DNA of 64,000 nucleotides from contig CAWFQB010000005.1 of the NCBI GenBank assembly GCA_963817895.1, positions 608,001-672,000 of the forward strand. The letters are read 5' to 3'. Source of the DNA: an uncultured Chthonomonadaceae bacterium (lineage in GTDB: Bacteria > Armatimonadota > Chthonomonadetes > Chthonomonadales > Chthonomonadaceae). The notes under the pieces were generated by a model. It was not told where the DNA came from. It saw nothing but the letters and a program-made list of their open reading frames with translations, and made no database searches. How positions within the stretch are numbered: position 1 is the first letter of the stretch; each line of letters starts with the position of its first letter. Shown here piece by piece: positions 28,272 to 33,001 of this stretch. A program made the translations under genes and the position numbers.

Positions 28272-29615
28272 CTAATTAGACTTATCTCTTAGAACTTGCT
28301 GTATGCGTCGCGGTAGAGTTGGTGCTAACAAAGCACGCAGTTGTATAATGGTCAAACGTGCTGTCGAGCTATTTACAATCTCCATTACACTAGTTTCTCG
28401 GTCATCTGGCAATATTCCACTTTTAAATATCTTCTCTATTAGAGAACGAACCGCCCACCGGTCGCTCTCATAGGCTAAACGCCAGAGTTCTCTCAAACAA
28501 TTTATACGTAAGTCTGAGGACGAAACAGTCCGATAAACACGGTCAAGTACACGTCCGAAATCGTTGGCCCCCTCGAAAGGCCATCGTGTTGTGCCTAAGC
28601 ATTCCTCCACACGCTCAATGTAAACTTTCACAAATGCTCCAATAGAATTTCCAACAACCGAATAGTACGCTTGTACGTTCTCATCGTTGTTTAGTATACG
28701 TGCTATCGGCTCCAAATAATCATGGTATACGTGAAATGTGTACTCTCCTGCTATCGCAAACCGATGAAAGTCGTGCCAATCTATCGGGGTTGAGCCATCA
28801 GCATAAGCGCTTACACGTTCGCCCACAGTCAGTTCATCACTTCTACTAAGCATTTCTTTGAGAGAGTTGTAAGCATCAGTAAATGCTTCTATATCTGCGT
28901 ACCGATCCTCTGGCAGATTTTCCGTTGCCTTGATGATTACTGGGCCAAAGTCACAAATTTGGTATGTACGTGGACTGCGCCCCGTGCAAATATAGTTAAG
29001 TACCTTTCCAAGCGAGAATATTTCACTTCGTACAGTTGCTTGCGTTAGGCTCTCCATCTGCTCTGGCGCGGTAAAAGAGAGTTGACCGTAGTTGCCCTGT
29101 GCCGTCTTAGTATGAGCAGACAGGGACTCCCAATTCTTACCCAAACCAAAGTCCGCGACTTTCACTTGGAATGAGCTATCGGCGAGCAAAAACAAGAGTA
29201 TGTTTTTAGGCCCAAGGTCGCGGTGCAAGACAGAATTCTGATGAGCATGGGTGATAGCAGCGAGAACAGCATCAAATAAAGCTATTCGGCTCTGAAGAGA
29301 AATCTTGGAGTTGTTCCGTTGAAGGTAATCTTCAAGGTTGGAGGATGCATAAGGCATTACATACCAATTGCAGCCATCGTCCAAGCCCTTATCTAAGACA
29401 GTCACGATATTCTGATGCGGAGCTAGTCTTTCTAGCAATTCAACTTCTCGGCGGAACCGGAGGACGTAATTCGCGTTATTTTCATGCTCTATTTTAAGTT
29501 GCTTGAAAGCAACTATTTCTCCAGTAATGCTATCCTCACATCCGGTCACATCAGCAAAATAGCCCGAGCGAGGAGAATATTTTTGTTTATATCGCTTGTT
29601 GGCTTGCATTACCAC
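28272..29615 (-). CDS. Serine/threonine protein kinase with helical C-terminal domain
   Basis: VAFKQL, RFRREVELL, HRDLGPKNIL, VADFGLGK, TAPEQ and SEIFSLG; intact, AT-richer. Confidence 0.9.
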   Translation of the reverse strand: MVMQANKRYKQKYSPRSGYFADVTGCEDSITGEIVAFKQLKIEHENNANYVLRFRREVELLERLAPHQNIVTVLDKGLDDGCNWYVMPYASSNLEDYLQRNNSKISLQSRIALFDAVLAAITHAHQNSVLHRDLGPKNILLFLLADSSFQVKVADFGLGKNWESLSAHTKTAQGNYGQLSFTAPEQMESLTQATVRSEIFSLGKVLNYICTGRSPRTYQICDFGPVIIKATENLPEDRYADIEAFTDAYNSLKEMLSRSDELTVGERVSAYADGSTPIDWHDFHRFAIAGEYTFHVYHDYLEPIARILNNDENVQAYYSVVGNSIGAFVKVYIERVEECLGTTRWPFEGANDFGRVLDRVYRTVSSSDLRINCLRELWRLAYESDRWAVRSLIEKIFKSGILPDDRETSVMEIVNSSTARLTIIQLRALLAPTLPRRIQQVLRDKSN

Positions 29616-29805
29616 TGGAACCTTGTCCTTTCATTATCCCTGAGAACGTGTGTACTCATCACTGGCTTCCGGTTCGCACTCCCCTTCGGCCTGCCTCTGT
29701 TGACGCAGGAGGTACGCGGAACAATTATTCTTATTGTTCAAACTCTGTCCAGATTGAAGGCCATTCTTGTTGTAACTTCTTGCACCTGCCGGAGTTATAA
29801 AAACG

Positions 29806-30690
29806 CTATTCGTTTGCAAATGGGTCGGACTCGTCTAGGTCATCATCAACTGGCGGCGGAGCGGGTTTACGTCCGCCTGTACTTGGCTTAGACCATTTCA
29901 AACTAGGCGAATCCAATTCATATATAATATCTCGCGGCTGGTTGAAATCAATAACTACCCCGACTTTCCCGGACTGTGTAGCTTCAAACCTAACTACCTT
30001 GCCCTCACCGTAACGTTGTGTGAGAACGGTGTTACCTACGAAGAAACGGCCAAAGTCTACTTCGCTTTCAGGAGTACGAACCGATGCAGGGTTGCGCACC
30101 AATATCAAACGACTAATTTCCAACACTTCTTCAATCATCTCTCGTTCAGAACGTATTGTGTTCCTTGGTACTACTGCATGAGATTGAATTGTTTGAGAGA
30201 CACGCACCTCTAAATCCGGCCACCACTTTTCAAAAGTGGTATCCAGAACGTTTTTTGACAGTCCTCGCTCTCCTAGTTCCCGGTTGAGCATGGAGACAAG
30301 TTTGTACATCTCATCGTGGTTGAAGGGGGCTGCTTGGAATTGTTGCAAAGGGCCGGTCAGGTCAGTTGTTGCAATTCCAAATAACAGTGGTACAACCTTT
30401 GAGGTGTCTATCTTCTTTGAAATTGCACCACCTTCAAAAAGCAACCAAGGGGATTGCAGGTTGTTGGATGTCAAGAACATCAACCCGTTCTCGGATTCTT
30501 CTAAATTTTTAGCGATGTCCGTAGACCATCGTGAGCCTTTTTCGACATCATCAGGAGAAAAAAACGGTTTAACCGCTTGAAGAACACTCGGCAGCCAATC
30601 ACTAAATATTTGAGCAATGCTTTTGCTTGGCTCACCTGACCAGCTAAGAAAGACGTGCATATCAAGATTACTCCGGTAGAGAAACGACAT
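29806..30690 (-). CDS. TIR domain protein with C-terminal Tudor-like domain and acidic PF tail
   Basis: VFLSWSG...KGSRW...PWLLFEGGA (TIR_2 with catalytic Glu); FFVGNTVLTQRYGEGKVV; terminus DDDLDESDPFANE; start 30690 or 30660. Confidence 0.9.
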   Translation of the reverse strand: MSFLYRSNLDMHVFLSWSGEPSKSIAQIFSDWLPSVLQAVKPFFSPDDVEKGSRWSTDIAKNLEESENGLMFLTSNNLQSPWLLFEGGAISKKIDTSKVVPLLFGIATTDLTGPLQQFQAAPFNHDEMYKLVSMLNRELGERGLSKNVLDTTFEKWWPDLEVRVSQTIQSHAVVPRNTIRSEREMIEEVLEISRLILVRNPASVRTPESEVDFGRFFVGNTVLTQRYGEGKVVRFEATQSGKVGVVIDFNQPRDIIYELDSPSLKWSKPSTGGRKPAPPPVDDDLDESDPFANE

Positions 30691-30888
30691 TCCTGTCGCC
30701 TCGGATATACTGCTAGACTACTGACGCAGGTACAGGGAGCAGTGGCGAGTGGCAAGTGGCGAGGACTTGCGTCTGTTCTCTTGCTCCTGCGCTCTGTTCG
30801 CCCTGTTGCCGTCCGCCTACGCTCCCGGCTTCATGTCCTGCCTCAATTCGGGCGGTTGAGGACTATTGTGGCTTCGAAACAGCAGCTT

Positions 30889-32127
30889 TCAACCACTTAT
30901 AGCATCCGATATAATAAATGGGGAGTGAATTAATTTTAGATTGTGTACCACCCAAGCGATTAATTTTATTTTGTAGCCTAATTCCTCGGAAGTTACTCTA
31001 CTTGAAGGGTCGTGAATTAAGATATTTCTTAGTTTGTTCAATTCCGAAATTTTTTCTGCGAGGCTTCTAGGAATACTTCCATCTATCACTAACATATCTA
31101 CCAATGTCCTCACAGTCATAGCATGAGGTTCTTTGCTTAAAGACAGACCTTTTTTGCTTGCTAATAGTAACAACTCTGTGTGCAATTCCTTCCAATTATC
31201 TACGAACCTTCCTAATAAGAAACTGGAATTGGCTGCTGCATCTTCTGCTACCAAGTCACGCTCATCCTCTGCTACGCTTACCTGTGGCAGTTTACTTAGA
31301 GCTTCTTCCAATTTCGGCTTAACTTCACCAATTAGTAGATCACACTGTTCAAGGTCGGATTTTGTGAAGCCAGAGTTATGGGCAATCATGCACCGATAAT
31401 CGTATAATTTATTCCATCGTGTGTTCAGCCAACCATCCTCACAGGCGACTAGACGCGAAAAATAGCGTTCCCAATTAGATTGAGGAACAATTGCCTTAAT
31501 TTCTTCAAGTTCCTCAATTGTATTCGCTTTCTTTAGTTTTGCATATATATCCTGATCTGTACTCTTAGAGTAGGGTCTGAGAAGAAAACGAGTAAGATCA
31601 ATGAAATCAATGGAGTACAAAATGGAGGCGCGTTCCTGACGTTGTTTGTTAGCCGCTTCTTTCACCTCTTGTGGAGTTGCTTCTGTAGCCCATTCTTTTC
31701 CTACAGTGATAAGCAGGAAGTTGGCGATAAGTTTCCGCATGAGATTTTCAATCTCATATATTTTTGTATATGCCTGTTTAGAGTAGTATAAAGCAATATC
31801 ATCCCACAACACTTCCAACTGCCCCTTTGCCATCCCCATAACAAGACCGCGAACTGCTTTCAACAGCAAGGTAAGTGCCTCAACCGCTTCTGAGACCACA
31901 CTTTCATCTGGATTTATTTTAAACTTTAATTGAAAGTAGCGTTGGTCTTTGCCACTGATCTCACCAGTGCCAATATGATAGCCGCACTGGAAATTGTTGT
32001 GATGAATATGGTTCCCCTTGACATGTATTGATGAGTCAACTTCTAAGAAGCGATTGAAGCCTGCAACGCTGTCACAGACCGAACTACTTTTAGGGAGTAT
32101 GACGGCGTATTCCACAACAATTTCCAT
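30889..32127 (-). CDS. HEPN-domain protein (Swt1-like HEPN plus second C-terminal HEPN-like motif)
   Basis: IYEIENLMRKLI...LYDYRCMIAHN (RxxxxH) and LNKLRNILIHD (RNxxxH); GGAGG RBS. Confidence 0.8.
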   Translation of the reverse strand: MEIVVEYAVILPKSSSVCDSVAGFNRFLEVDSSIHVKGNHIHHNNFQCGYHIGTGEISGKDQRYFQLKFKINPDESVVSEAVEALTLLLKAVRGLVMGMAKGQLEVLWDDIALYYSKQAYTKIYEIENLMRKLIANFLLITVGKEWATEATPQEVKEAANKQRQERASILYSIDFIDLTRFLLRPYSKSTDQDIYAKLKKANTIEELEEIKAIVPQSNWERYFSRLVACEDGWLNTRWNKLYDYRCMIAHNSGFTKSDLEQCDLLIGEVKPKLEEALSKLPQVSVAEDERDLVAEDAAANSSFLLGRFVDNWKELHTELLLLASKKGLSLSKEPHAMTVRTLVDMLVIDGSIPRSLAEKISELNKLRNILIHDPSSRVTSEELGYKIKLIAWVVHNLKLIHSPFIISDAISG

Positions 32128-32158: not shown

Positions 32159-32330
32159 TTACGCCTCTTGCTCACCCGTTGCCTGCTTCTCCCCGTTCCT
32201 CGGATACTTCCTCAGTTTGTACGCCTCTACCGACTGCCGGAACACGAGTCGCTTCCTTCTTCCGGTTCGCTCTGCCCTTCGGCTTTTCGCCACGAACGCG
32301 GGTGCGGGCTTTGTCTCTGTGCCTCTAGCC
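32159..32330 (-). pseudogene. 3' remnant of small HTH/AT-hook gene
   Basis: RKRLVFRQSVEAYKLRKYPRNGEKQ; 53/66 nt identical to 32684-32749. Confidence 0.5.
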
Positions 32331-32540
32331 GCGAACAATGTCATGCACGATGTAGTTCTTCATGGTGTCTTTTGACGCTGTCGCGCCCATATTTTCGCGT
32401 AGTAATATTGTAGGGTCGCCGCCTAACTGAGTAGCCCTCGCAACATCTGCTGGAAGGACAAGAATGACACCTACATGTGGCACTTCATACGCCTTCGGCG
32501 CGGTTATATTGTCTCCCAAATCACTCCATTTGCACTGCAT
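32325..32540 (-). CDS. Short AT-richer hypothetical ORF (possibly a gene fragment)
   Basis: 71-aa ORF with island-like composition; no recognisable motif. Confidence 0.35.
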   Translation of the reverse strand: MQCKWSDLGDNITAPKAYEVPHVGVILVLPADVARATQLGGDPTILLRENMGATASKDTMKNYIVHDIVRG

Positions 32541-32666
32541 AAATGCTTCATCCCTGCTTGGTTGCTGAAATACTGCTGTTAAAATGACGTGGCAGAGGCG
32601 CGGAAAGTGTCACACGTATAATAATTTTTTTCACAAAAACCCTGTAAGAACGATTCTGCATCTGAT

Positions 32667-32780
32667 TTACCTGCCGCCTGCTTCCTGCTTCTCCCCTTCC
32701 CTCGGATATTCCCTCGATTTGTACGCTTCTGCCGATTGCTTGGATACGATGTACCTGCCGCCTGATTTGCCACCACGACT
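32667..32780 (-). pseudogene. 3' remnant of small excisionase-like HTH gene
   Basis: Unlisted frame reads GGKSGGRYIVSKQSAEAYKSREYPREGEKQEAGGR-stop; homologous to 32182-32247. Confidence 0.5.
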
Positions 32781-32839
32781 TTAATAGAGTGGTTGTGTCC
32801 TCTTCCAGTAGAGGAGCGCAGATACAATCGCGCCAATGC

Positions 32840-32859
32840 GGACACAACATGTTGTGTCC
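32840..32859. repeat. Perfect 20-bp palindrome, GTAG-REP-like
   Basis: GGACACAACATGTTGTGTCC followed by CTGC (approximating CTAC). Confidence 0.65.
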
Positions 32860-32947
32860 CTGCAAACATTTATTTGAACGGTATTGCTGCTAAGAACCTA
32901 CGCCAATAGGCATGGTATTCGCGTCTGCAAGACGCTTGCACTTTCCT

Positions 32948-32970
32948 GCCGGGTATTTTCAATACCCGGC
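32948..32970. terminator. Hairpin downstream of the STAND gene
   Basis: GCCGGGTATT-TTC-AATACCCGGC, about 30 bp past the stop at 33002. Confidence 0.45.
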
Positions 32971-33001
32971 CAATTGGGATAAATTCTAAACAGCGCCGGT
33001 T

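Follow-up and report, generated by a model that had tools for sequence, protein, structure and literature searches.

How most single-gene anti-phage effectors sense infection is the question raised by the locus described here, where a 23-residue host peptide, likely captured, at the end of a TIR protein gives a direct and cheap handle on it. The gene lies in a window of 64,000 nucleotides (the whole stretch of DNA that was analysed), and a first-pass annotation had proposed that its product carries mimics of two host proteins, a PcrA/UvrD-like Tudor domain and an SSB-like acidic tail. One of these two claims, that of the PcrA Tudor domain, fails. The other holds: a probable immune enzyme, from a family that swaps host hub domains, has likely acquired a host peptide, and the case is genuine and unusually clear. 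The locus owes this clarity to the atypical tail of the lineage and to a copy of sufficient length to be traced to the host gene.

A TIR protein in a low-GC island

The TIR gene sits in a low-GC stretch (0.44-0.47, against 0.55-0.60 around it) and forms a three-gene island with the genes for a HEPN-like protein and an Stk2-like kinase (Table 1). M11 (position 30660) is an alternative start that agrees with the start in most homologues. Pfam TIR_2 matches residues 13-125 (E 5.8e-8, 33.7 bits against a cut-off of 28), and the PADLOC model TIR-TM (PDLC03016), which we take to be the TIR of the P2-like phage AC1 hotspot system, covers residues 11-206 with its positions 1-203 of 293 (E 3.5e-70). 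The best fold matches of the predicted structure in Foldseek were the SPARTA TIR, SpbK and plant TIRs. The profile of alignment A1 gave no PDB sequence match. The WLLFEGGA motif (residues 82-89) contains E86, which is invariant in 42 of 42 aligned homologues and falls in model helix 81-91, the expected helix C site of the conserved catalytic Glu. From established TIR biochemistry we presume E86 to be the catalytic residue, so that the first-pass reading of a TIR domain with its catalytic Glu in this motif stands, with catalysis predicted from sequence.

Past the TIR domain, the predicted structure has two stalk helices (146-172 and 182-199) bearing residues invariant among the aligned homologues (W156, W157, P158, R180, E188, L190 and R194), and the variable C-terminal module begins beyond them. 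Confidence in the structure (pLDDT) is low from residue 250 onward, and the C-terminal part of the homologue-based model was set aside as biased by helical homologues. The annotation had described a beta-rich stretch, a Pro-rich linker and an acidic tail correctly. Taken together with its family, the protein is likely a mobile, stand-alone NAD-cleaving anti-phage effector.

No transmembrane segment was detected in the TIR protein or its two neighbours (19-residue hydropathy maximum 1.44), and promoter and terminator counts at the locus were no different from those of shuffled sequence. The neighbouring genes are likely independent defence genes that share the island rather than conserved partners: no conserved partner gene appeared in 80 loci of the family, where the largest neighbour clusters among 483 ORFs were ABC ATPases (7 loci) and integrases (5). 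In the 77 frames recovered from 80 GTDB loci, the GC content of the TIR gene was below that of its surroundings in 74. The gene with this tail is known from one genome assembly (81% complete), that of the host, which is a Chthonomonadaceae bacterium to judge by the organisms in which its SSB homologues occur; searches of 60 relatives, 400 phylum genomes and a metagenome scan found no close orthologue of the protein, and distant members occur in six other phylum genomes.

Short degenerate repeats flank the island genes (window 29666-29690, 32259-32283, 30805-30860, 32175-32247 and 32677-32749), and repeats of this type also adjoin other low-GC genes of the genome (C2:338621-340659, C4:48129-49628 and C1:790454-792273). 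They are perhaps relics of a cassette insertion process; integron attC ends were not seen in them by eye. The intergenic window 32540-33001 holds REP-like palindromic elements with many copies across the genome, and a separate region (L180, G000:C4:45000-53000) contains about 12 short same-strand genes of lower GC with repeated paralogues, resembling a cassette array.

Table 1. Coordinates of the features discussed. Unprefixed positions are those of the window; prefixed ones refer to other loci, or to genome and contig.
Feature	Position	Strand	Basis or remark
TIR protein gene	29806..30690	(-)	ORF, 294 aa; GC 0.46 against 0.57 for the genome
TIR domain, residues ~11-140	30271..30660	(-)	Pfam TIR_2, PADLOC TIR-TM and model matches
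WLLFEGGA motif, presumed catalytic Glu86	30424..30447	(-)	E86 invariance; catalytic role from TIR biochemistry
Conserved helical stalk, residues 146-199	30094..30255	(-)	Model helices and invariant residues
Predicted orphan beta-rich domain, residues ~213-268	29887..30054	(-)	Five strands in single-sequence model
23-codon copy of host ssb 3' end (Pro-rich linker, acidic DPFA[D/N]E tip, TAG stop)	29806..29877	(-)	Identity to ssb
Upstream neighbour, HEPN-like protein	30889..32127	(-)	412 aa; two RxxxxH motifs; GC 0.40
Downstream neighbour, Stk2-like Ser/Thr kinase	28272..29615	(-)	447 aa; GC 0.45; Stk2 E 2.7e-47
Host ssb	G000:C3:656185-656757		Only PF00436 match in the genome
TIR with DnaX tau-CTD, L250	G103:C1:1302039-1303148
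TIR with DnaX tau-CTD, L252	G138:C3:3447757-3448767		One internal stop
PDC-M02B match with SSB-like tail	L179:7672-9042 (G000:C5:305668-307041)		Between helicase and Eco57I-type methylase genes
DUF4062 NADase with SSB tail	L203:3032-4006		Low-GC/defence-type; host sub-lineage tail
NDT/TIR-like protein with SSB tail	L196:87-941		As above
HEPN-like protein with SSB tail	L187:2682-3866		As above
Winged-helix-like protein with SSB tail	L201:2179-2667		As above
Orphan low-GC gene with SSB tail	L183:7454-7897		As above
Pseudomonas low-GC kinases and TIGR02391 protein	L232:1783-2904, L235:1226-2362, L236:1758-2885		End in DDIPF
RecT-like phage/prophage protein	L267:1418-2521		DPFADE tail
Phage/prophage protein, function unassigned	L189:2567-3601		DPFADE tail
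DUF669-type SSB-like phage/prophage protein	L268:2501-3043		DPFADE tail

The tail copies the end of the host ssb gene

Set against the C-terminus of the host SSB, the tail proved a near-exact match, stronger than the annotation had claimed. The last 23 residues of the TIR protein are identical to it at 22 positions, the sole mismatch being a D to N change at the second-last. Across the 69 bases the two sequences agree at 54 (blastn E 2e-9; protein search E 1.1e-7), a resemblance far above chance, with 9 of the 23 codons identical, 13 synonymous and 1 non-synonymous. By the Nei-Gojobori method this amounts to 14 synonymous and 1 non-synonymous differences (pS 0.85, pN 0.019, pN/pS about 0.02; binomial P 2e-8). 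Both genes share a TAG stop, and the flanks on both sides of the matching stretch are unrelated. When the congener G002 served as outgroup, the TIR copy had 13 base changes of its own, the host ssb 1 and G002 7, and third-position GC in the tail (0.43) equals that of the remainder of the TIR gene, against 0.70 in ssb.

The match is also specific to this host. At the DNA level, no other phylum tail in the comparison comes as close as that of the host SSB, and of 120 SSB homologues just 3, including the one from the host, reach 22/23 identity to the TIR tail. The suggestion in the annotation that SSBs of this lineage end in DPFAxE is borne out by 117 of the 120 homologues, which end in DPFADE. 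The host ssb lies in an intact rpsF-ssb-rpsR operon (rpsF and rpsR assigned by eye) on a separate contig from the TIR gene, and the TIR protein itself has no OB-fold PF00436 domain. An acidic PF tail ends only 2 of the 9,197 host frames of at least 200 aa, those of the TIR protein and of one further defence-type protein.

A near-identical peptide, an excess of synonymous change and homology that ends at the stop together point to a tail captured from an ssb of this lineage, whose third positions have drifted while the peptide was probably kept by purifying selection. Capture from ssb is therefore likely. A mobile low-GC ssb, borne by a phage or plasmid, may have been an intermediate donor, in which case part of the synonymous change would be older than the fusion.

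It is most improbable that the tail is a functionless by-product, whether left as a scar of integration or arisen by chance fusion or misassembly. The gene comes from a single genome and integration sites that duplicate gene ends are known, but the 15 base differences mean that the tail is no misassembly of ssb reads, the ssb operon is intact on another contig, which speaks against an att-site scar, and the low pN/pS adds to a body of evidence by which such a reading is largely refuted.

No support for a PcrA/UvrD Tudor domain

The second proposed mimic fared differently. Residues 213-268 show a loose F.VG..V....G.G.V pattern, as at the start of the PcrA/UvrD Tudor domain (PF21196), and are predicted to form an all-beta domain of similar size, likenesses on which the claim had drawn. 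However, the PF21196 profile matched UvrD alone in the host genome, and the segment had no Pfam, NCBIfam, PHROG, PDB-sequence or ESM-Atlas match. Against an HMM of UvrD C-termini from its own order it scored an insignificant 5.2 bits; at least 25 unrelated host frames scored higher, and at least 10 of 5,000 shuffles equalled or beat it. In global alignment to the host UvrD C-terminal domain, 151 of 2,000 shuffles did as well or better. RNAP binding by the PcrA Tudor domain needs H681, W684, K712 and L714 (PMC5397179). In a by-eye register against the host UvrD, uncertain past F249, the equivalents are T224, Y227, I255 and Y257, so that the His and Lys, two of the four binding residues, appear to be absent. 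PcrA-Tudor identity was accordingly rejected: no family, structure or homologue match speaks for it.

A small five-stranded fold is plausible from the single-sequence model (pLDDT 49.6). A fold search on this poor model gave a best Z of 2.5, which speaks neither for nor against a Tudor fold. The domain is at most loosely Tudor/SH3-like, and PcrA mimicry is unsupported. None of 42 candidates was a longer protein sharing the domain, which is weak evidence, and no donor was found in the host genome or the fetched loci. The domain would likely act as a second sensor or as a spacer.

Swapped C-terminal modules in the TIR family

We identified 1,259 homologues among 2,332 candidates, and most of the best 120 align over their first 60-70% only. 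The annotation had suggested that a survey of homologue C-termini would reveal swapped decoys, and alpha-CTD, tau-CTD and PF tails were indeed seen. An acidic PF tail closes 30 of the best 120 homologues, the TIR protein under study included. The tree built from the N-terminal part (170 rows, duplicates and rows without the cut motifs left out) carried 44 PF, 6 alpha-CTD, 2 tau and 118 other labels, the last without a recognised host-like module; helical domains are another alternative C-terminus in the family. PF labels require 14 changes (at least 4 forced by strong branches) and alpha-CTD labels 5 (at least 2 forced), on a tree with many weak branches.

An alpha-CTD was present in eight of the proteins scanned, confirmed by Pfam in P0015, P0061, P0113, L052, L060, L069 and L103 and weak, below the cut-off, in L115; the host's own RpoA was the best of four for only two of the four copies tested. 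A tau-CTD was found in P0056, L250 and L252. The family is present in 7 of 401 phylum genomes, and the members in two of these, L250 and L252, carry a DnaX tau-CTD. The L252 gene has an internal DSDPFSEN stretch ahead of its tau copy. In genome G138, which holds L252, the copy is identical to the host's own DnaX at 67 of 87 positions, against 49/83 to 55/89 for three related hosts, while the G103 copy matches its own DnaX at 56/84 and that of G115 at 57/90. Synonymous change is saturated in both (pN/pS of 0.16/1.06 for G138 and 0.24/0.95 for G103). By these comparisons both tau copies tested are under purifying selection and resemble the DnaX of their own host, the G103 copy being about as close to that of G115.

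Host matching of the PF tails outside the host phylum is harder to judge. Of the hosts of 20 PF-like GTDB members chosen by eye, 18 had a complete SSB end (16 D[DE]IPF, 1 DDLPF and 1 EQMPF), and in one host the SSB ends in EQMPF and the TIR in DSIPF. Judged by sequence, these tails fit a common DDIPF-type consensus, which falls short of proof of host matching. Most PF-tailed members bear a short, generic tail behind a helical domain, and it may thus be accessory.

Two further arrangements were noted beside the family. A Blastocatellia TIR (L093:6001-6921) combines a tau-CTD-like domain, similar to L101 and P0056, with a DEDIPF tail. Genome G115 holds free-standing copies of the DnaX tau C-terminal domain of about 95 aa in what are apparently separate small genes (L261, G115:C4:5332-5592; L263, G115:C41:804-1073), and these are possible stand-alone decoys.

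The same tail on other proteins and in phages

The pattern DPFA[DN]E-stop had matches in 108 of 401 phylum genomes (at least 3 in a reversed control, among the matches listed). More than one match occurred in 12 of the 401, giving 13 extra tails in total; genomes with a single match were checked in part. Of the extras, two belong to second SSBs and one to a frame of 16 codons; the other ten lie in frame at the ends of long non-SSB ORFs, a distribution that argues further against a functionless by-product. These ten are the TIR protein, a PDC-M02B protein of the same genome (E 7e-126, ending SSB-like in EDIDEADPFADE), a DUF4062 protein (E 4e-17), an NDT/TIR-like protein (weak match), two proteins next to an McrC-like gene that by eye are HEPN-like and winged-helix-like, an orphan that follows an endo/exonuclease gene, a protein resembling YbjN by eye and two prophage-like proteins. 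Several are, to judge from their sequences, of defence type. Sub-lineage forms of the tail are kept in several, such as DEYDPFADE in G401 and DDDFDDSDPFADE in G149, and the host's own SSB was top or tied-top among 43 distinct tails for six of the ten, with numerous ties.

In Pseudomonas, DDIPF-stop was found in 151 of 151 genomes (a tally that includes the unpublished G529), with two matches in seven. The second matches were three SSB-type proteins, two low-GC kinases and one TIGR02391 protein, with G334, which holds the TIR L062, as the seventh. Given ten cases in the phylum and a few in Pseudomonas, SSB-type tails on non-SSB proteins are uncommon yet recurrent.

Kinases and a TIGR02391 protein are enzymes that could need positioning, and the tail follows an intact middle domain in almost all cases. 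Both facts agree with a tether, by which the tail, tau-CTD and alpha-CTD would do no more than dock the TIR on replication, repair and transcription machines, as the tau-CTD does on host Pol III alpha, and leave sensing to the beta or helical domain. The benefit would be a raised TIR concentration at phage replication sites. NAD+ diffuses freely, however, so a TIR should gain little by localisation alone. A five-residue tip would moreover be enough for most pockets, but all 23 residues are conserved here, variable linker included. We consider a tether alone rather unlikely.

Proteins ending in DPFADE-stop also occur on 16 viral contigs, among them three canonical SSBs, two copies of a DUF669-type SSB-like protein and one RecT-like protein. 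RecT itself had no match in the 81%-complete host genome, and a clear tail was seen in only 1 of 69 distinct viral homologues of the TIR family. The viral tails would suit a guard that works by displacement, where the tail is bound by a host SSB-interacting enzyme and the TIR stays inactive until phage SSBs or tail mimics compete for the pocket and release it. A parallel exists in DRT10, whose activation needs a phage SSB-like protein with the host tip and is dampened by host SbcB (10.64898/2026.04.29.721553). Yet abundant host SSB should itself dislodge the TIR, and TIR NADases require assembly beyond mere release (PMC12847820), which makes this reading unlikely. The same tip on the phage SSBs of this lineage could also displace a tail folded into a pocket of the TIR protein itself. 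Such autoinhibition in cis is very improbable: host SSB, with the same tail, would displace it too, and matching each host's sequence would be superfluous.

A proposed bait for oligomeric phage proteins

Among host enzymes, readers of the SSB tail mostly form oligomers of low order. We hypothesize, as our leading though still tentative explanation, that the tail serves as bait for oligomeric phage readers of SSB tails, which would cluster the TIR. Without infection, the TIR would remain dispersed, since host readers are of low order and the far more abundant SSB would outcompete it for them. Upon infection, phage proteins that form rings or filaments and must dock on the host SSB tail would engage many tails together; RecT, Red-beta or Sak-type annealing proteins are the prime candidate triggers. 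Because such readers are oligomeric and the TIR carries a host-matched tail, the phage ring would become an activating platform, and the clustered TIR domains would bring about NAD+ loss or signalling.

The phage partner and activation by clustering are both proposed in the light of known systems. Red-beta docks on the final seven residues of host SSB (PMC13490951), Sak rings depend on the tail of their own phage SSB (PMC11846896), SpbK is activated by clustering on the portal YonE (PMC12847820) and Swarozyc is switched on by assembly on the phage portal ring (10.64898/2026.05.01.722283). Many defence systems are escaped through phage SSB or annealing proteins (PMC11846896). Several points stand against the bait, among them the 118 of 170 tree rows without a recognised host-like module, the mostly short and generic PF tails, and the single genome assembly from which this TIR is known. 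Phage proteins, including the RecT-like one, carry the tail themselves, which fits displacement or a tether equally well, and host matching is incomplete, with the host's own SSB best or tied in only six of ten cases, RpoA in two of four and the G103 tau copy near that of G115.

Phages target both the tau-CTD and the alpha-CTD. Relatives carry these other host hub domains in the position of the tail, so the add-ons are likely bait, and their presence at this site suggests that host hubs are used in this way more generally. More broadly, and with greater reserve, we envisage bacterial integrated-decoy receptors in which a TIR chassis captures pieces of host hubs, keeps them host-matched and fires upon phage docking, the SSB tail being a portable bait for unrelated effectors. 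The fused host-derived domain by which integrated decoys are recognised is found here in the ssb tail, and in relatives in the tau-CTD and alpha-CTD. If this is true, defence genes and their triggers could be sought by a rule at the sequence level, and captured domains would mark the host hubs that phages attack.

Comparison with known systems

The AC1 hotspot TIR, which with its associated transmembrane proteins protects against lambda, LF82_P8 and P2 (Rousset et al. 2022, PMC9122126), shares its N-terminal TIR and stalk with our protein (residues 11-206, E 3.5e-70). The last third of the AC1-type TIR-TM model is unmatched, the beta domain and SSB tail standing there instead, and the AC1 system has two transmembrane proteins, whereas no TM-like segments occur in the neighbours here, a HEPN-like protein and a kinase. 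Since the transmembrane partners are absent, we do not class the protein as a member of an AC1-type system.

SpbK (PMC12847820), which is among the top fold matches, and the DUF4062 protein Swarozyc (10.64898/2026.05.01.722283) are likewise TIR or TIR-like NADases encoded by a single gene. Each has its sensor in a separate domain and becomes active when it assembles on an oligomeric protein of the phage. Their sensors, N-terminal in SpbK, are dedicated portal-binding domains, not copies of host proteins, and the available text of both reports makes no mention of an SSB tail for either.

Phage mimics of the SSB tip such as Bas52_0087 (10.64898/2026.04.29.721553; 10.64898/2026.10.27.754916) share the disordered linker and acidic PF tip at a free C-terminus. 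They sit on phage SSB-like proteins that trigger defence, whereas the copy here sits on the presumed effector and can be traced to a host gene at the DNA level. Two DRT4 preprints, in their available text, treat the SSB tip on phage proteins only. The terms 'SSB' and 'decoy' were not found in the available text of one TIR survey (10.64898/2025.12.03.692087), and in that of another (PMC11350192) SSB appears only as a TIR-retron trigger. Our search, mainly of openly available main texts, found no published description of SSB tails or captured host domains on defence effectors.

The use of a pathogen-targeted host part as a sensor is shared with plant NLR integrated domains, PrrC, PARIS and Panoptes (PMC12409349). 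The bacterial guard and decoy cases covered in the available text of that source guard a separate complex or make decoy nucleotides, with no host protein piece fused to the effector. In plants such domains are built into an NLR core, which the TIR protein here does not have. If our interpretation is true, it would be a bacterial counterpart of the integrated decoys of plants.
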